From positions 37,093 through 101,092 of the IMG/VR virus record IMGVR_UViG_3300029288_000111: a stretch of 64,000 nucleotides of DNA; one strand, 5' to 3'. The notes under the pieces are model-generated. The model worked only from the letters and a program-made list of their open reading frames with translations. It had not been told where the DNA came from and made no database searches. This document shows positions 23,453 through 57,733 of the stretch, piece by piece; within the stretch, counting starts at the first letter, position 1; every line of letters starts with the position of its first letter. The stretch is from a virus (Duplodnaviria > Caudoviricetes). Both the position numbers and the translations under genes were made by a program.

Positions 23453-23659
23453 CTACGCGGAGGCCTGAGATGTTCCCGCTCGGGCCTCCCGGCGTGCGGC
23501 AGCGATCTCCCGCTCGATCTCCTCGGGCGAGAGCCCGGAACGCCGTGCGTTCGCCCAGGCGCGTTCGACGATCTCCTGGAGGCCCTCCCACGCCTGTTCA
23601 CGCTCCCGTGGGAGAGAGTTTGATATCACAATCTGTGATTTCAAAACATCCTCTTTCAT
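23453..23659 (-). CDS. small hypothetical protein with palindrome-encoded LKSQIVISN motif
   Basis: GAGGGG RBS; helical 68 aa. Confidence 0.55.
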   Translation of the reverse strand: MKEDVLKSQIVISNSLPREREQAWEGLQEIVERAWANARRSGLSPEEIEREIAAARREARAGTSQASA

Positions 23660-23700
23660 GTTCGCCCCTCGCGTTCACCGGCTCCCGACGAACACTGTAC

Positions 23701-48737: not shown

Positions 48738-49991
48738 TCACACCGCGGGCGAGCGCACCGGCACGCTCTCGACCACGAACACCCCCCGGCCACCCACGGT
48801 GGACACGACCCAGCCGGTGGATGACACCGCACGCACCCCGGTGTCCGCGCCGTTGAGCGTCACCCCCACGGTGCCGAGCGCCGCCGGGTTCCAGGGCGCC
48901 TGCGCCTGCGTCTTGGCGCCGCCGTCCTGATCGGTGTAGCTGACCGTCAGGGTCGCGGCCGCCCCGAAGGCGTTCAGCGCCCGCAGCCGCACGGCCGGCG
49001 AAGTGAACCGCGTGTACTCCGCCCCGACAATCGGCGTGACCGTCAGGGCATCGTTCGCGGTGATCACCCCGATCGCCAACGGCGGCTGCCTCACCCCGAG
49101 GTGCAGCCCGCTGCCGTTCACCGCCGCTGCCGGCACCAGCCGCGCGCACGTCGCCACCGGGGGCGTCACCAGCACGTCGGCGGTCCGCCGGATCGCGATG
49201 TAGTACAGGGGGCTCGTGTCCGCGAAGGCGTTGCCCGCGCGATCCACGTTCGTGCGCCCGATGTCCGTTGGCACCGTCCACGAGAGGATCCCGTGCGCCG
49301 ACAACCCCGTGGAGCCGTCCGTCACTGTCAGCGCCGTCCACGCCGAACCGTTCCAGTAGTAGAAGAGGGGCGTCATCGTCGCGGACGCGAGCGTCGAGAG
49401 ACCGAGTGCCAGGCGAGAGGGCTTCGCCCGCAGCCCCAGATAGAGCATGTGATCATCGGCGGCGAAGAGGTTCACGTCTCCGACATCGGCGTCGCTCAGG
49501 TCGGTCGTCACGTCCACCAGCGCCCCGTCGGCGCCTGCGTAGGCCCGATCCGCGCTCACCACCCCGTACTGCGGCGCGAAGACGTTCGCCGCCGACAGGA
49601 TACTCTCCCCCAGGTGCCTCCGAAACAGTTCCGCCGCCAACGGGTGCAGCACCGCTGAGACCCCGGTACAGTAGGCATCCAGGCTGGCATAGCCGCCGTA
49701 GGTCTTAACCTGACTCTCGATCTGGCGCGCGATGTCGGCGTAGACCGTGCGCCCCAGAAGATCGATGAGGAGGGTCTCAGCGTTCTCCCACAGCGGCGCC
49801 TTGTCAAAGGCGTTCGCGTAGTTCACCAGCGCCCCCTCGATCTCGGGGTCGCCGGTGCCGTCCACGAGCGCGTAGAGGCCGCTGCCGGTGTTCGTCAGGC
49901 CCGCTTCGATGAGGTTGTCGAAGTCCTGCTGCAGCTTCGCCGCGATCCGGTCGCTCACGTTGTGGAATGCCGTCTGCGAAAATGTGCCCAT
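48738..49991 (-). CDS. virion structural protein
   Basis: 417 aa; YYWNGSAW..L.V.DG motif; AGGAG RBS. Confidence 0.65.
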   Translation of the reverse strand: MGTFSQTAFHNVSDRIAAKLQQDFDNLIEAGLTNTGSGLYALVDGTGDPEIEGALVNYANAFDKAPLWENAETLLIDLLGRTVYADIARQIESQVKTYGGYASLDAYCTGVSAVLHPLAAELFRRHLGESILSAANVFAPQYGVVSADRAYAGADGALVDVTTDLSDADVGDVNLFAADDHMLYLGLRAKPSRLALGLSTLASATMTPLFYYWNGSAWTALTVTDGSTGLSAHGILSWTVPTDIGRTNVDRAGNAFADTSPLYYIAIRRTADVLVTPPVATCARLVPAAAVNGSGLHLGVRQPPLAIGVITANDALTVTPIVGAEYTRFTSPAVRLRALNAFGAAATLTVSYTDQDGGAKTQAQAPWNPAALGTVGVTLNGADTGVRAVSSTGWVVSTVGGRGVFVVESVPVRSPAV

Positions 49992-49999
49992 GTGCTCTC

Positions 50000-52900
50000 C
50001 TATGCCGCCCGCCGCATGTGCTGCTGCAGGAGCGCCTCTTCATCCCGCGCGATCCGGTCCGCCAGCCCCGTGTCGTCGAGCAACTCGCTCGCGCGTGTCA
50101 ACATCTCCCGCAACTCCTGCTTCCCCGCCAGGATCTCTCGCCGCCGGTGCTCGTAGGGGGTGTCCGTGGCGAGCGTGTGAACCTCCACATCGTGCTTCTG
50201 CCCCATTCGCAGCACCCGCCCGGTGCGCTGCTTCTGAGTCAGCGCCGTGTAGGGCGTGTCGTACTGGATCACCCGGCTCCCCCGCTGCAGGTTGAGACCC
50301 ACCGCGCCGGCATCCGAGGATACCAGTACGTCATACTCCGCCTCCCCGACGCCCCCGGTCGGCGCGAATCTCTCTTTCGTCTGGTTCCGCTTCCTCGCCC
50401 CGTCCGGGCCTTTGTAGGTCGCAACCCGGTGCCCCGCCGCCTTCAGCGCCCCGGCAATCGCGTCCACCGCTTCCAGTCGGTGCGCGAACACCACCAGCGG
50501 CCGCGCCCGGCTCTCCTCGGGGCTGCCGGCAAGTTCCACCACCTTCTTCAGCTTCGCCGCCTCGGGATGGGTGTTCACCACCCGGTCCAGCGCCGCTTGC
50601 GTCGTCATCCCCAGAGACATCTGCACCCGACGCGCGATCTCCTCGTGCGCCTCTTCCGGCCGCCCCCGGAAGGAGCTGGGCGAGAGCGCCCGGATCGCCT
50701 CGACATCCACCCGCCCCTGCTGCCGCGCCGCCCGTGCCCGCCGGTAGAGCTGCTCCACCCGCGCGTATGCCTCTCGCTCGGCAGGTGACGGCTCCAGCCG
50801 GTGATCCCGCTCCTCGCTCTTCACCCCCGGATCGATGCTCTCGGCGTAGTGGTACGGCGCCATCTCCAGCGCCAGCGCCCGATACGCCGCGTCCGTGCCC
50901 GTCGCATACCGCCGCAGAAACTCCTCGCGGTTCGAGTCGTTGTAGCGGTCCGGGCGGATCTTGGAGAGGAAGTCGAACGCCTCACTGTTGTGATGCCAGA
51001 TGCCCTGCGCCAGATAGTTGTGGTAGACAGGGACCGTCAGATCGTAGACCTCAGCTTCGCCGACCTTGTCAATAATATTGACTTTGTGGTATACTAAGGC
51101 AGCGCTCTCCGAAAGGTGCTCCCATGCGACATAGGATGCGTGACTACGATGCCGAGATACGGCGGATGGCAGCCGAAGGGAAACAGGTCTCCCAGATCGC
51201 CCGCGCGTTGAATATCCCAGCACGCAGCGTCCACGGCTATTGCGAACAGCAGCAGATTGAACACATACGCCAGCGCGGATGCCCCGGGAGCGTCCTTGAT
51301 CCGCATGATTCCCAGATTCGAGCAATGGCTGCCGCAGGTCTGACCCTACGCGAGATGGGAGAAGCCTTCGGAGTGACGGACGGAGCAGTGCGACGATTCT
51401 GCGTGCAACATGGCATCGAGCACTGCCACAAGCGAGGCTGGAGGCCCGGCACACATACCGGACTTGACCATCACTCATGGAAGGGCGGTCGCTATGTATC
51501 TGGTGGCTATGTCTACGTCCTCCGCCCGGAGCACCCAGAATCCGACAGCGATGGTTATGTTCGAGAACACCGGCTCGTCGCTGAGGGGATGTTAGGCCGC
51601 CCCCTTCTCCCATCGGAAGTGGTCCATCACAAGGATGGGAACAAGTCCAACAATGCGCCCGGGAACCTGAGGGTCTATCCATCGAACCGCGAGCACTTCC
51701 TTGATGCACACCCTGGCGAGCCGTGGTCTGAGGAGATTCGCGCCAAGATGATGACCGGCCAGAAACGTGGTCACAAGAAAGGTGTGCCCCACTCAGAAGA
51801 GACGCGCGCGAAGATGAGCGCCGCGAAGAAGGGCAGACCAATGTCTCCTGAAACGAAGGCGAAACTCTCTGCCGCGAAGAAGGGCACGCACCTCTCTCCA
51901 GAAGCGCGGGTTCGCGTTGCAGAAGCTGCTCGGAATCGCGTTGTCTCGGAAGAGACGCGCCAGAAGCGTGCTGCGACGTGGGCGCGCAAGCGAGCAGAGC
52001 GCCTGGGGCAATCTCCCGTAGGTGGCGCCAACCCTCCGGCGTCAGGAACCGATGATTCCCGGCAACCGTGATCTCCGCGCCATTGTCCAGAACGACCCGG
52101 TACATCGGCGCGATACATTTCACGAAGGGTACCGACGCCTGCATCAGCCGCCGCACCCCGGCTGGATCCAGCGTCCATACCCACGGCGCCATGCCCCGCG
52201 CCGTCCACTCTCTCACCGGCATAGCAATCCGGCGCACCGGATCCTCTATGATCGTGTCCGGATGGATGCACCCGTCGTTTCTGATCGGATCGGCGCTCAT
52301 CGAGATATGGTGACTCGTGCCGTCCGTCAGCGCGTCAATGGCGTTCGCCATCTGCGAGCCTTCGGCGCTCCCCCGCCGCAGCAGGTTGTGGCCTTCGTCT
52401 ACCACCGACATCCCGAAATCCCACCCCTTCGCCGCCAACGCCTCCTTCATCGCCCGCTGCCGCTGCCGCCGCGGCGCCGTCTCCAGGTAGCCAATCGCCT
52501 TCTGCCGGTTCCCCCCGAAGCGGTGCTCCGCCAGCGCGTCGATCAGGTCATCCCGGAGCGCCTGGTGCGTCACCACCACCATCCCCAGGTCGGGGTTCGC
52601 GTAGGCCGCCTGCCGCTCCTCGCGCGATGCCCCTGGCTTCGAGTGCCAGGTGATCCCCGCTTCCGGGTCCACAAATCTAATCGCCTCCCCCGAGAACTGG
52701 CCGACCACCCCGCTCGGCACGGCGTAGATCGCCCGCTTCACCTTCCCCTTGGCCCGCTGATCGGTGTAGGCCGCGATGCTCGCCAGCGTCTTGCCGGTTC
52801 CCACGGCCATGCTGTTGCCGATCCGGTGCGCCGCGTCGAACTGACGCAGAAACCGCTGCCGCTTCACCGCATCCCCGGTGGTGAAGTCGGCGTCCGCCGC

Positions 52901-55900
52901 CGGTGCCGGCCGCTCGATGTCGAGGCGGGGCATCATCCCGGCGAGTTCCGCTTCCGCCGCATCCCCGAGGGTCGTCCGGACCATCTCCTGCTGCAGCTCC
53001 TGGCTGCGCCCCTCTTCGCCCCCGAGTTTGAGCTGCTTGCTCTCCTGCGCCGCGGCGATCTCCGCCACCCCGGCCCCGAGGCTCCCTTCGGCGTAGCGCC
53101 CCTGCTTCCGCTCGCGCGCCGGGTCGGCCAGGCTCTGCTGCCTGGCCCGTTCCTTCGCCCGCTGCTCCGCGCTCTGGACGCGCTGCGCGTGCTCCTCGGC
53201 GTAGGTGAGCCGCTTCACCCCCCGCCGCAGCCGCGTGCCGGTCGCCCGCTCCAGGGCCGCCGCGAACTTCCCCGACACCTCCCCGCGCATCTTCTCCAGG
53301 ATGCTCTGGTAGGCCCGGCGCTCTCCTTCCGGCCCCATCGTGAACCCCGAGAGGTAATCCGTCCAGGTCAGGCCGGTCGCTCGCTCCGAGTCGGCGGTGA
53401 CCACCTTGCCCGGGTCGAACTCCCCCGAGACATCCCCGTGCTTCGCCAGCACATCGCCGAAGAGGTTCTGATAGGCCCAGCCCCGCAGCCGCTCCTCGAT
53501 CCGCGCCCGTGCTTCCCGCGCCAGCGCGTCCACGCCCCGGGTTTCTGTCGGGTACAGTTCCGGCGTCAGGGTGCTTCCCGGTTCCCGCGCCATCTCTTCC
53601 AGGCGCGCCGCTTCGGCTCCCAGCCGCGCCGCTTCCTCTCCCTGCGCCCCGGCCGCCTGCCGCCGCAGCCGCGCCGCCTCGAAGGAGACCGCCTCCCGCG
53701 CCACCGGCTGGTATCCCAGTTCCCCGGCGTGCTCCCGCGCCGCCCGCAACACCGCCGCGTCGTCGCTCAGGTCCATCGTGGCGAAGGAGTGCCCCGCCGG
53801 CTTCTCCTCCCCCAGGTCCATCCCGAACATGCCGCCGGAATCGGCCGGCGTCGCCTTCTCGTCGCTCTCGCGCCACTGCTTCTGGATCGCCGCGTAGGCT
53901 TCCCGGCCTTTCCCGAGTCTGGACTCCCACTGCTCCCAAATCGCCCGTTTCGCCCCGGCGTTCTCCCCGGTGAGACCCAGCGGCTCCTGCCCCGCCTCTC
54001 CCACCCGGAAGACGTTCCGGCGTGCCCAGTCGCGCACCGCCTGCCGCCCCTCGCGCCCCAGGTCGCCCACGTCGCCGAAGGCATACTGGAGCGCTGGCTC
54101 GCGCGTCACGATCTGATACGCCAGGTCCCTCGCCTCCTGGCTCCGGGGGATGCTTTGCGCCCCCAGCGGCCCCCCGCCACTCTCCTTCAGCCAGTCGGCA
54201 TGGTAGCCCCGGAAGCGGCGTGCCGTCTCCCGCATGTACTCCTTGGCCGCCTTGCCCCCTTCGGTGCCCCTGGCGGAGTCGGTGTGCAGTGGTGCCACCT
54301 CGGAAAGCGCATCCTCGAACTCGGCGTTCTGGTGCGGCTGCACGCCCGCCTCTGCGCGCACTTGCGGGCTCCACAGCGCGCTCACGATCTGCTCAGGAGA
54401 GTAGCCCACCTCCAGGCGCCGCGCGACGTTCTCCTTCAGGCGCGCGGCCAATTCCTCCTTGCCGTCGAAGGCATCCACCGCCAGCCGGATCTCCTCGGGC
54501 TTCACCCGCTCCGGGTCATACTCGAACGACGGCGGTGCCGGCCGCCGACTGATCCCCTCGGGCAGCCACCCCGGCTCGTCCTGCGTGCCCCGCTGGATGT
54601 CGAGGACCTGCCGCCGCAGCGCCGCTTCCCGCGGGTCCACGTGCAGCCGCGCCGCCAGCTTGTCCATCCCCCTCGCGGTGATCTCCAGGAACTTGTTCGC
54701 CCCGTTGGTGTGGAGGACGTAATCCCCCTCCTGCGCTTCCCGGTAGCCGGTGGGCGAGAACGGGTCCGGCGCCATCACCGACGGCTCGTCGAGGCCCACG
54801 GCGCGCGCCTTCACGATCGCATCCTCGTAAGAGGTCGCCCCGAGGCTGATCTGCAGCCGGTCGCGCGGACTCCCCATCAGCGCCTCGTTCAGCGCCGCCG
54901 CCGCTTCCAGGCGCCCCAGCGCCGTCCCTGCCAGCCGCCGGGCGTCCCTGACCAGCTCCTCGCGCTCGCTGTTCTGGTGCAGCGCCGCGATCAGGCTGAT
55001 CTCGTCGCTCAGAGGGATCAGGTCCGTGTTCTCCGCCGCGTTCATCCGCTCGTGCGCGGCTTCCACGGCCTCCTCGGCCGCCTTCACCTGCCCGGCGATG
55101 TGCGTCTCCCGCAGCGCCCGCGTCGTCGCCTCCAGGCGCACCGGGTCGAGCTGCTGTGCCATCGCCCGCGCCATGACGTTCGCCGTCGCCCACTCGCCCA
55201 GGATGTCCGCGGTCAGCGGGTCCACCCCCGCCCCGCCGAGTGCCACCTGCGCCACCTCGCCGAAGAGGGCGTTGTGCCCGGCCAACCGGTGTTCGCGGAT
55301 CGGCGCCGTCGCCTCCAGGGAGTGAACCGTCTCTACGAGCCCCCGCATCGCCCGCTGCCGCCCCTCTTCGTGCAGGTCCTGCGCCACCTTCCGCAGCGCC
55401 TCCTCGTCGGTTAGGGGTGAGACGCGCAGCACCGCCACCGTCGGCAGCGACCCCACATCCTCGATGCTCTCCATCTCCTTTTCGAGGGTGCGGCTCTCCC
55501 GCTCCAGCGCTTCCAGCTTCTTCGCCGCCTGCGCCAGCGAGATCGCCTGCCCGATATCCATGTTCGCCGCGTCCGTGGGCAGGCCCTCCGCCTTCTCCCG
55601 GATGCCAGCGGCTTCCGCCAGCGCCTTCCGGTCCGCGCGCGATTGCGCCGCCGCCTCCCGCATCGCCGCCAGCGAGGCCAGCGCCGCTTCCGGCTCCTCG
55701 CCCTTCTCCGCCGCTCTCCGCCGCTGGATCTCTTCCTTCTCCCCGGCCAGCAGCTCGGGCGTCACCCCCCGCTCGCGCGCCTTCTCGTCGAGCGCCGCCA
55801 GGTAGCCCTTCCCGGTGTCTCCCATTGTGGAATGGACGAGATCCCCGAGGCCCACGTCCCCCAACTCCCGCCCGGCCAGCTCCTCGTGCGCGTTCAGGAT

Positions 55901-57733
55901 CCGCTCGCTCACCGAGCGCGCCATCTCCCGCACTCTCGAGAGGACGGCATCCTCATGCGCTTGCTCCGTCTGCGCCGCCCGCTTCTCCGAGCGCGCCTGC
56001 GCCCGCTTCTCCACCGTCGCGCGCTGCTTCGCCGTGAGCTGCGCGGCGTCATCGAGGTTCTCCCGCTTCAGCGCCCGCGCGGTCTCCGTCGCCCGCGCCT
56101 GCTCCAGCGCCTGGCTCTTGATCTTCGCCTTCTCGTCGTCGCTCAGGGAGAACTGCTCCGGCTTCCACCCCGCATCCCGCGCGAGCTGCTCCAGGACCTT
56201 CTGCTGCTGCTCCTTCTTCAGGCTCTGCACGTGCGCGATCCGCTCCTGCTTCGCCTGCTCTACCTGCCGGGCCTCGCCCGCCGCCCGCTTCGTCGCTTCG
56301 AGGGAGGCCTCCTCGCCCTTCAGCCCCTCCGTCTTCGCCGCTTCGAGGTGCCGCTCATACCGCTCCTGGTGCTCCTTGTCCTGCGCCTCCCGCCGCTGCT
56401 GGGCCTTCGCCTTCGCTCGCCGCTTCGCCTCCTCGCGGTGTTCCGCCATGGTCCGCACCCCGGTCAGCCGCAGGCCGTTCAGCGCCCCGCCGGCGCCCCC
56501 GATCACCGTGTGCGTGCCGTCGGGGTTTTCCTTGATCAGGACCGGATGCCCCTCCTCGTCATCCCCGTTCGGGTGCACCGTGATCCAGTGTTCCCCGGTG
56601 CCCAGCTTCGAGGGCGCCGCCTTCTTCTCCGGCTGCTGCTCGTCGGCGCCGACCGCCTTGCGGATGTCGGGGTCGCTCGGATCGAAGGTACCTCGGTTGC
56701 CGATGGCCGACTTGATCTGCTCGGGATAGAATACGGCGTAAGTAGTCGCTCCCTGCTCGCGCGCTTCAATGCCATCATACCCGAGTGACTTCAGTTCTAT
56801 AGCAACCCCCGGAAGCCGGAGAATCTCATAGATCGGCATCCTGGTGGATAACGTGTCACGAGCAACACCCACAAACGCAGAGCGACGAGATCGTGCACTT
56901 ACAGCGTACTCATGTGCTCGTATCGCGTCCACCTGCTCCTGCGTTGGAACATGCTCATCCTCTAGCCAACCCAGATTCCAGTCATAAGGACGCCCCTCCA
57001 AGTCCGTGTACCGCATACCGGTCGGAGCGTCTGGCACATATCGAACGCCAACAGCCAATAATGCCCCAACGAGGCGATCCAGTTCCGCTTTTGTGGGGAT
57101 GCGGATGTCACGGTCAAGGACGAAACCCCCCGCCACTGCATTGGCGAGACGCAGACGTGGCACGCTCGTCAGCTCGGCCACCTCTGCAACAGACGCCTCT
57201 TCTTCGATATTCCGCCCGATTCGCAGTGGGCGCTCCACTCGCAGATAGACAGGATACACTCCATGAGCACCACCCTCGCGCCCCACCGCTTCGGAGTATG
57301 TGTCCGCATATCTTGGCGCGTCGGTGAACCATGAGGGACCAAACTGTGTGCGGAACTGAGAGAAGCCAGATCCGGGAGTGCCGTGGTAGACCACCAGCGG
57401 CTTCCCATGCTCGTCCACCACCTTGCTGTCGCCGAACCACCGCTTGAACTCGGGCGTCTCCGTCTGCTCCGGCTTCCTCCCCTTGATCCGCACCCCGAAC
57501 GTCACTTTGCCGCTGGCATGATGGATCGGCACCTTCTCCCGGCGCTGATACGGCTGCTGCGCCTTCAGCAGCGGCTCCACGGGCTGCCCGTGATACCGGA
57601 TCGTATGGCAGAGCGGGCACCACGACGCGCTTCTCCCGCGCCGGCTCCGGTCCTCCCGCACCCACACCCGCAGGCTCGTCTCATCCGAGCACTCGCACTT
57701 CGGGCGCCTGCCTTTGAAGATCGCTCGCAGCAT
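50000..57733 (-). CDS. large polyvalent protein: ART-PolyVal-like domain, helical region, SF2/SNF2-like helicase, with intein
   Basis: FKRWFGDSKVVD..VVYHGT..GYDG..QIKSA.GN.GTF; helicase VGTGKT, DEGH, SADP, GLNLQ, QRTGRVLRMGQ. Confidence 0.88.
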   Translation of the reverse strand: MLRAIFKGRRPKCECSDETSLRVWVREDRSRRGRSASWCPLCHTIRYHGQPVEPLLKAQQPYQRREKVPIHHASGKVTFGVRIKGRKPEQTETPEFKRWFGDSKVVDEHGKPLVVYHGTPGSGFSQFRTQFGPSWFTDAPRYADTYSEAVGREGGAHGVYPVYLRVERPLRIGRNIEEEASVAEVAELTSVPRLRLANAVAGGFVLDRDIRIPTKAELDRLVGALLAVGVRYVPDAPTGMRYTDLEGRPYDWNLGWLEDEHVPTQEQVDAIRAHEYAVSARSRRSAFVGVARDTLSTRMPIYEILRLPGVAIELKSLGYDGIEAREQGATTYAVFYPEQIKSAIGNRGTFDPSDPDIRKAVGADEQQPEKKAAPSKLGTGEHWITVHPNGDDEEGHPVLIKENPDGTHTVIGGAGGALNGLRLTGVRTMAEHREEAKRRAKAKAQQRREAQDKEHQERYERHLEAAKTEGLKGEEASLEATKRAAGEARQVEQAKQERIAHVQSLKKEQQQKVLEQLARDAGWKPEQFSLSDDEKAKIKSQALEQARATETARALKRENLDDAAQLTAKQRATVEKRAQARSEKRAAQTEQAHEDAVLSRVREMARSVSERILNAHEELAGRELGDVGLGDLVHSTMGDTGKGYLAALDEKARERGVTPELLAGEKEEIQRRRAAEKGEEPEAALASLAAMREAAAQSRADRKALAEAAGIREKAEGLPTDAANMDIGQAISLAQAAKKLEALERESRTLEKEMESIEDVGSLPTVAVLRVSPLTDEEALRKVAQDLHEEGRQRAMRGLVETVHSLEATAPIREHRLAGHNALFGEVAQVALGGAGVDPLTADILGEWATANVMARAMAQQLDPVRLEATTRALRETHIAGQVKAAEEAVEAAHERMNAAENTDLIPLSDEISLIAALHQNSEREELVRDARRLAGTALGRLEAAAALNEALMGSPRDRLQISLGATSYEDAIVKARAVGLDEPSVMAPDPFSPTGYREAQEGDYVLHTNGANKFLEITARGMDKLAARLHVDPREAALRRQVLDIQRGTQDEPGWLPEGISRRPAPPSFEYDPERVKPEEIRLAVDAFDGKEELAARLKENVARRLEVGYSPEQIVSALWSPQVRAEAGVQPHQNAEFEDALSEVAPLHTDSARGTEGGKAAKEYMRETARRFRGYHADWLKESGGGPLGAQSIPRSQEARDLAYQIVTREPALQYAFGDVGDLGREGRQAVRDWARRNVFRVGEAGQEPLGLTGENAGAKRAIWEQWESRLGKGREAYAAIQKQWRESDEKATPADSGGMFGMDLGEEKPAGHSFATMDLSDDAAVLRAAREHAGELGYQPVAREAVSFEAARLRRQAAGAQGEEAARLGAEAARLEEMAREPGSTLTPELYPTETRGVDALAREARARIEERLRGWAYQNLFGDVLAKHGDVSGEFDPGKVVTADSERATGLTWTDYLSGFTMGPEGERRAYQSILEKMRGEVSGKFAAALERATGTRLRRGVKRLTYAEEHAQRVQSAEQRAKERARQQSLADPARERKQGRYAEGSLGAGVAEIAAAQESKQLKLGGEEGRSQELQQEMVRTTLGDAAEAELAGMMPRLDIERPAPAADADFTTGDAVKRQRFLRQFDAAHRIGNSMAVGTGKTLASIAAYTDQRAKGKVKRAIYAVPSGVVGQFSGEAIRFVDPEAGITWHSKPGASREERQAAYANPDLGMVVVTHQALRDDLIDALAEHRFGGNRQKAIGYLETAPRRQRQRAMKEALAAKGWDFGMSVVDEGHNLLRRGSAEGSQMANAIDALTDGTSHHISMSADPIRNDGCIHPDTIIEDPVRRIAMPVREWTARGMAPWVWTLDPAGVRRLMQASVPFVKCIAPMYRVVLDNGAEITVAGNHRFLTPEGWRHLREIAPGALLACAPTSQHASGASLPRQRDSEQLLQREPALLERGACPSSRQRVSPSFQETLVCPSSRRSSSRASLLSGAHLSCDHVSGRSSSWRESPQTTARQGVHQGSARGSMDRPSGSRAHCWTCSHPCDGPLPMGEGGGLTSPQRRAGVLEHNHRCRILGAPGGGRRHSHQIHSDRPSMSDGQVRYVCRASSLACGSARCHVARRIVALLRPSLRRLLPSRVGSDLRQPLLESGNHADQGRSRGIRAGVCVQSAAVRNSRGRCVLGYSTRGRSGRPVSLRLPSAVSRHRSHASYVAWEHLSESAALVYHKVNIIDKVGEAEVYDLTVPVYHNYLAQGIWHHNSEAFDFLSKIRPDRYNDSNREEFLRRYATGTDAAYRALALEMAPYHYAESIDPGVKSEERDHRLEPSPAEREAYARVEQLYRRARAARQQGRVDVEAIRALSPSSFRGRPEEAHEEIARRVQMSLGMTTQAALDRVVNTHPEAAKLKKVVELAGSPEESRARPLVVFAHRLEAVDAIAGALKAAGHRVATYKGPDGARKRNQTKERFAPTGGVGEAEYDVLVSSDAGAVGLNLQRGSRVIQYDTPYTALTQKQRTGRVLRMGQKHDVEVHTLATDTPYEHRRREILAGKQELREMLTRASELLDDTGLADRIARDEEALLQQHMRRAA
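51066..51095 (+). promoter_or_regulatory. sigma70-type promoter for the antisense HNH gene
   Basis: TTGTCA-N18-TATACT with extended -10 TG; RBS AAAGGT; ATG 51124. Confidence 0.7.
51124..52071 (+). CDS. HNH homing endonuclease (2x HTH, HNH, NUMOD3-like repeats), antisense inside the intein
   Basis: WKGGR..GY, EHRLVAE..LGR.L..EVVHHKDGNKSNN..NL; HSEETRAKMS/PETKAKLS repeats. Confidence 0.92.
   Translation: MRHRMRDYDAEIRRMAAEGKQVSQIARALNIPARSVHGYCEQQQIEHIRQRGCPGSVLDPHDSQIRAMAAAGLTLREMGEAFGVTDGAVRRFCVQHGIEHCHKRGWRPGTHTGLDHHSWKGGRYVSGGYVYVLRPEHPESDSDGYVREHRLVAEGMLGRPLLPSEVVHHKDGNKSNNAPGNLRVYPSNREHFLDAHPGEPWSEEIRAKMMTGQKRGHKKGVPHSEETRAKMSAAKKGRPMSPETKAKLSAAKKGTHLSPEARVRVAEAARNRVVSEETRQKRAATWARKRAERLGQSPVGGANPPASGTDDSRQP

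Follow-up and report, generated by a model that had tools for sequence, protein, structure and literature searches.

An intein in a phage polyvalent helicase gene that encloses a predicted HNH homing endonuclease gene on the opposite strand

Inteins with an endonuclease open reading frame (ORF) on the opposite strand are a known but rarely reported architecture. Antisense LAGLIDADG endonucleases were described for inteins of Synechocystis DnaX and a Chloroflexus SpoVR-like protein (Gorbalenya 1998; Gogarten 2002), and antisense LAGLIDADG or VSR-like ORFs as well as an out-of-frame EndoVII-like ORF were reported for actinophage inteins by Gosselin, Arsenault and Gogarten (bioRxiv 10.1101/2025.01.02.630785), who name HNH as an in-frame intein type only. 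Related arrangements include the +2 ORF of cyanobacterial dnaX, for which frame-specific selection was shown (bioRxiv 10.64898/2026.09.14.751524), ShiLan, where a hidden same-strand HNH gene is inserted in a phage methylase that has no intein (PMC11855218), and the fractured genes, in which an endonuclease gene of its own sits between the parts of a split intein (Dassa et al. 2009, PMC2677866). The present analysis concerns an intein and the HNH gene nested antisense within it, both located in a 64,000-nucleotide (nt) part of a 101-kb viral contig of IMG/VR (record IMGVR_UViG_3300029288_000111); the window, by which the whole stretch analysed is meant, has a GC content of 66.5%. The element is an HNH-type, widespread variant of the architecture outlined above. 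The initial annotation of this DNA had implied that the arrangement was new, which was only partly borne out: antisense endonuclease ORFs in inteins had been reported in 1998 and 2025, but none of those found in these sources was of the HNH type, and no paper on an antisense HNH version of an intein endonuclease was found in a literature search.

The host gene, which occupies 50000..57733 on the minus strand, encodes a phage polyvalent protein of 2577 amino acids (aa) and was delimited from its ORF, Pfam and PHROG matches, and homologues. An ART-PolyVal domain, a long coiled middle and an SNF2-like helicase (ResIII + Helicase_C) were recognized, the protein matched a PHROG DNA helicase family at 3.4e-59, and the exteins had a GC content at third codon positions (GC3) of 0.87. 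The gene is interrupted by a class-1 intein of 428 aa (50987..52270, minus strand), and a complete 315-aa ORF combining helix-turn-helix (HTH), HNH and NUMOD3 modules lies on the plus strand at 51124..52071, within the intein. The two probably constitute a composite selfish element made up of a class-1 intein and an opposite-strand HTH-HNH_3-NUMOD3 gene for a predicted homing endonuclease. This reading, which follows the layout proposed in the initial annotation, is well supported by stop avoidance, by conservation that switches between the strands, by structure prediction, and by recurrence in 12 + 74 related loci. Where canonical inteins hold an in-frame endonuclease in a loop, comparative sequence evidence places a distinct, oppositely oriented gene here. 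In the proposed mechanism, the host gene would be translated through the antisense stretch as a disordered linker of ~288 residues, protein splicing would excise this linker along with both Hint lobes, thereby restoring the helicase, and the HNH protein, made from its own antisense transcript, would nick or cut intein-less alleles of co-infecting relatives, after which repair would copy the whole element in. With a transcript of its own, the nuclease could be made at a different time from the host protein. As in the ShiLan, EndoVII-like and dnaX +2 cases, an overlapping frame hides a mobility nuclease in an insert that stays open in the host frame, with the nuclease frame selected; those cases are same-strand, whereas the gene described here is antisense to a complete intein that encloses it. 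The fractured genes of Dassa et al. share the placement of the endonuclease as a separate gene between two Hint halves, but here the halves form one continuous frame, as for cis-splicing, and the host gene is unsplit.

The splicing blocks, previously described as intact, were found to be so. The junctions read SADPIRNDG|C...HN|SEAFDFL, with Cys1, His427-Asn428 and Ser+1 in place, and Pfam Intein_splicing (PF14890) was matched at 57.1 bits (cut-off 35.8). Intein-less homologues with 57-65% identity read ...SADP(I/V)(R/K)ND(A/V)SEAF... uninterrupted across the same site, so that the insert is precise, just after helicase motif III. The last N-extein codons, SADPIRNDG (52271..52291, minus strand), and the first C-extein codons, SEAFDFL (50966..50986, minus strand), would form the left and right halves of the predicted homing site of the intein-less allele. 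Residues C1, H73, D410, H427 and N428 were invariant in an alignment of 10 family members. In the AlphaFold model of the intein, the predicted local distance difference test score (pLDDT) was above 90 at residues 1-99 and from about residue 390 to residue 428, both lobes being beta-rich, and was about 33 over residues 100-387, where no secondary structure was predicted. The N-terminal Hint lobe with blocks A and B (residues 1-99; 51974..52270, minus strand) and the C-terminal Hint lobe with blocks F and G (residues 388-428; 50987..51109, minus strand) also show codon-position conservation in the intein frame; residues 68-95 are double-coded, the plus strand being there the tail of the HNH ORF. 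The linker between the lobes (51110..51973, minus strand) comprises 288 residues rich in Ser, Arg, Cys and Pro, yielded no match to Pfam or PHROG, and, as its codon-position pattern and the ORFs indicate, is the stop-free antisense of the HNH gene; the description of the middle in the initial annotation was upheld, as were its other statements on the sequence itself. The element resembles canonical inteins in its Hint fold, which an endonuclease slot divides in two, its insertion into a conserved NTPase motif, and a presumed homing cycle ending in mini-inteins. It differs from them in that the nuclease lies outside the intein polypeptide and needs transcription and translation signals of its own, while the precursor carries a disordered filler of ~288 residues.

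The predicted HNH homing endonuclease (51124..52071, plus strand) was assigned from profile matches, a structural model and conserved residues. HTH modules occupy residues 1-45 and 59-95, and the predicted beta-beta-alpha-metal core of HNH_3 residues ~119-195; NUMOD3 helical repeats follow at residues ~203-293 and then a disordered tail. HNH_3 was matched at 37.5 bits (cut-off 24.8) and NUMOD3 at 44.8 bits (cut-off 20.4), several HTH families matched more weakly than these two, and PHROG HNH endonucleases were matched at 4.6e-25. Among the HNH_3 core residues (H168/H169, N177/N181, H191), H168/H169, N177 and H191 were invariant and N181 nearly so in sets of 13-36 divergent sequences. An AlphaFold2 model based on a 36-sequence alignment had a mean pLDDT of 83.6, with the beta-beta-alpha core at 93-98; it contained both HTH modules and the NUMOD3 helices, and the last 15 residues, which lie over Hint block B, were disordered. 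The TGA stop codon (52069-52071) falls over intein codons I67/T68, five residues ahead of His73 of block B, in agreement with its earlier placement. The HNH family profile matched I-HmuI (1u3e) at E = 5.6e-4. When the whole model was compared with the PDB by Foldseek, nothing reached E <= 0.001, and 1u3e ranked fifth with a probability of 0.77; such a comparison is weak because the model has a beads-on-a-string form. With the I-HmuI-like phage HNH endonucleases (PDB 1u3e; HNH_3 + NUMOD3) the protein shares the catalytic motif and a modular DNA-binding tail, and free-standing relatives of it are common in phages. Unlike the genes of those free-standing or intron-encoded enzymes, this one lies antisense within coding sequence and avoids TTA, CTA and TCA in one register.

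Very long antisense open frames are typical of DNA with 66% GC, so that ORF length alone is no evidence in the window. Other long ORFs, among them that at 52022-55414 on the plus strand, run antisense to the host gene; they reach 1130 aa and have no family matches. The open intein frame was assessed by codon shuffling and against an empirical null. Across the HNH gene, the intein frame contains 0 stops and the other two antisense frames contain 5 and 10. When the codons of the HNH gene were shuffled synonymously, a mean of ~5 stops arose and the intein frame was open in 0.06% of trials (P = 6e-4); in each of 8 related inteins, the probability of 0 stops was below 2e-4. Among 71 non-nested HNH relatives, none was stop-free in the corresponding register (5.3 stops per 100 codons), including the 12 with a GC content of at least 0.55. 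The shuffles, the closed register of the non-nested relatives and the recurrence of the nesting in 12 + 74 related loci together argue that the nesting is not fortuitous, and, by these sequence statistics, chance does not account for the open intein frame over the HNH gene.

For each region and frame, conservation was measured as the nucleotide identity at each of the three codon positions, averaged over sequence pairs. The HNH core read in the HNH frame gave.55/.62/.34. Read in the intein frame, the N-terminal Hint lobe gave.50/.56/.30 where it is not overlapped and.49/.57/.34 where the HNH tail overlaps it, the C-terminal Hint lobe gave.57/.65/.36, and the middle gave.55/.37/.57, the second codon position being the least conserved. 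Since the codon-position conservation switches at the Hint boundaries, protein-level selection is assigned to the intein frame in both lobes and to the HNH frame between them. When the same DNA was translated in both frames, the HNH frame showed 47% amino-acid identity and the intein frame 21%. The coding pattern of the HNH frame (.68/.51/.64) was milder than that of the exteins, and the intein frame had none over the middle. The patterns thus indicate that, over the overlap, the HNH strand is selected for its protein sequence and the intein frame is kept stop-free. These results bear on the proposal that the HNH ORF has lost its activity and survives as a relic, or now has another role such as that of a DNA-binding regulator, with the intein passed on by vertical descent only. 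One allele type only was seen for this phage and a regulatory use of the extra HTH modules is conceivable, but the catalytic residues are invariant over the 13-36 divergent sequences, the third-position variation in the HNH frame amounts to purifying selection on the protein, and decayed copies look different, with the core deleted and stops present; the proposal is accordingly judged very improbable. For models of overlapping genes, the locus offers a clean natural test bed with ~950 nt of antisense dual coding, in which one strand is selected for its protein and the other needs only to stay free of stops.

Relatives were sought at the protein and DNA levels. No match was obtained when the region was compared by blastn with 50,697 phage records, and single-sequence pattern scans of IMG/VR for the C-extein and for the intein found no relatives, whereas profile-based and HNH-based scans did find some. 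A HMMER search of 1.84 billion representatives yielded ~24 homologous inteins in related helicases, and the junk-looking middles of these share a motif that corresponds to the HNH_3 motifs read in antisense. DNA was available for 12 full-length inteins: that of the window, those of L084, L085, L003, L004, L005, L014, L089, L090 and L091, and two in one gene of L086. In 12/12, an antisense HTH-HNH ORF was intact and occupied the same relative frame, starting ~37-46 codons before the intein end and stopping at intein codon 61-84, across a GC range of 37-60% and at least 5 insertion sites. Stop codons in the intein frame of homologues would speak for an incidental overlap; all 12 had zero, compared with 5-9 expected, and a break was seen in L087, where an assembly error is likely, as discussed below. 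The motif-III site of the window is a rarer one and is common to L084, L085, L087 and P0126; the last, the closest same-site intein, was assessed at the protein level with a 'shadow' profile. Two family inteins occupy different sites of the P0215 helicase (1940 aa; L086:3736-4818 and L086:5263-6339), each with its own intact antisense HNH gene, and they are mutual closest relatives (57% identity in the HNH core, 47% in Hint).

For a wider survey of IMG/VR, a profile of 13 nested HNH proteins was used; at least 550 relatives were found and the best 80 were examined. The HNH gene was nested antisense in a longer open frame in 74 of these 80, always at offset 1 and hence in the same register, and Hint matches were present in 71-73 of the 74. 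All loci with clean junctions (47/47) had Cys1, His-Asn, and S, T or C at +1, and almost all of these inteins lay in Walker-A P-loops. Nearly all inteins of the IMG/VR loci L092-L171 are inserted at G..G|[S/T/C]GK[S/T] or one residue on, at GK|T; they are 272-347 aa long compared with 428 aa in the window, and the window HNH protein has an additional HTH module and more NUMOD3 repeats than theirs. Read from these loci, the whole layout is inherited together throughout a large family of phages. Like the antisense-ORF inteins with LAGLIDADG or VSR-like nucleases, the present element has a separate opposite-strand ORF in the endonuclease slot and an intein frame that is open but encodes no recognizable fold there, and in both the intein and the endonuclease ORF appear to move together. 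It differs from those inteins in that its nuclease is of the HNH_3/NUMOD3 type with HTH modules, it resides in polyvalent helicases and P-loop NTPases encoded by uncultured phages, Hint codons contain a promoter-like site, and the family is large. More distant HNH relatives in L042, L070, L073, L074 and L075 are on the same strand as Hint-domain matches and are probably canonical in-frame HNH inteins, so that both layouts would exist for this HNH family.

The nuclease may mobilise either the intein or only itself. In the latter case, the HNH gene could home autonomously into the DNA that encodes the loop of mini-inteins in this Hint family, spreading between inteins irrespective of their host genes and leaving the intein itself unmobilised; were this parasite of a parasite real, mini-inteins would be empty sites of the HNH gene and not dead ends. 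Insertion at a conserved Hint DNA site would be expected to give the same frame and boundaries at many host sites and in many genes, as was seen, the HNH protein of the terminase intein L003 is 46-50% identical to the others while its Hint is only 24-33% identical, and an endonuclease gene that secondarily invades a mini-intein was likewise proposed in the dnaX preprint (bioRxiv 10.64898/2026.09.14.751524). On the other hand, Hint and HNH agree on the closest pairs (L004/L005, L084/L085 and L086a/b), and Hint codons are intertwined with the putative HNH promoter and with the 3' end of the HNH gene, which points to long co-evolution. Hint and HNH identities correlated with a Pearson coefficient of 0.61 and a Spearman coefficient of only 0.30 over non-independent pairs, a result that is only moderately informative and compatible with co-inheritance as well as with HNH exchange. 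The sole mini-intein examined, a 220-aa one in the helicase P-loop of P0127 (L082:7186-7845), is a deletion derivative and not an empty target: in the same antisense register, an HTH segment and a NUMOD3-like segment are fused after loss of the HNH core, and stops are present, while the intein frame is still open. Such a remnant fits a homing cycle, which predicts decay of the mobility gene. Taken together, an HNH gene that moves by itself is considered unlikely, and mobilisation of the whole composite element is preferred.

Expression signals were sought upstream of the HNH start. A sigma-70-like promoter candidate, TTGTCA-N18-TATACT with TG before the -10 hexamer, lies at 51066..51095 on the plus strand, over intein codons L392-K402 (LVYHKVNIIDK), so that C-terminal Hint lobe codons double as a promoter-like site; it ends 28 nt before the ATG, and a Shine-Dalgarno-like AGGTG (51114..51118, plus strand), read directly, lies 5 nt before the ATG. 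The candidate, already pointed out in the initial annotation, proved statistically striking. It was the sole site scoring >=10/12 on both strands of the 64-kb window (128 kb), and the 35 nt around it had a GC content of 0.31, at the 0.03% quantile for GC; only one other spot in the window, at 23612-23660 (35-nt GC about 0.29-0.31), is as rich in AT. Hexamers resembling a -10 element (TATAAT, TACAAT, TATACT) were found upstream of the HNH start in L084, L085, L090, L091 and L003 and were weaker in other loci, and GC upstream of the HNH start was below that of the rest of the intein in 9/9 loci checked. The TTGTCA-N18-TATACT site may act as a promoter. On the suggestion of the initial annotation that homing would be uncoupled from late host-gene expression, PHROG scans of ten neighbouring ORFs provided no clue, a single ParB-like match being obtained.

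Several observations weigh against the composite element. Block B retains His73, but the usual Thr three residues ahead of it (-3) is replaced by Ala (A-G-N-H), so that the motif is only partly canonical. A good -10 hexamer occurs in only about half of the related loci, and the sigma-70 consensus may not be that of the host. No intein-less allele of this phage was found among contigs of four other runs on 49500-53500, which are short pieces, none bridging the intein; two joints listed among these contigs were rejected as not credible, their sides being short. Finally, in the closest database relative, P0004 (L087:1886-6583), which has an intein with an antisense HNH gene at the same motif III site, the intein frame is broken. 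The upstream extein is frameshifted as well, so that assembly indels are the likely cause, and a split-intein, 'fractured gene' or degenerate form of L087 was considered less likely for the same reason; the N-extein part of L087 also ends another intein-like segment, with a weak LAGLIDADG_3 match. The incomplete block B would also fit an insert that does not splice, either a tolerated insertion or part of a dead helicase gene whose open frame is incidental, and the locus might alternatively be an assembly chimera. Set against this are the invariance of all nucleophile and block residues, the position of the insert at helicase motif III, or at P-loops in relatives, where a loop of 300-400 aa would be disruptive, and the strong stop avoidance in the intein frame. 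Identical short contigs of this stretch were present in three other runs from two other studies, which argues against a chimera. A non-splicing or chimeric insert is hence scarcely credible, and the composite element is retained as the best explanation.

The layout has consequences for annotation, in which gene callers report either a giant protein with an unexplained low-complexity insert of 300 aa or an HNH gene next to a truncated host gene, as in L087 and L088. The L088 case (P0005; L088:1289-4303) is a terminase large subunit gene with an intein and an antisense HNH gene; the HNH gene was called and the terminase was cut to 552 aa. Because callers miss one or the other frame, annotations probably show no endonuclease for hundreds of phage inteins that do have one. 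The HTH-HNH-NUMOD3 enzymes, if active, would be expected to act on conserved P-loop or helicase-motif DNA and are candidate site-specific nickases. A second homing-type nuclease gene was observed in L089, where the helicase gene with the intein is followed immediately downstream by a convergent GIY-YIG/NUMOD3 endonuclease gene (L089:6753-7309).

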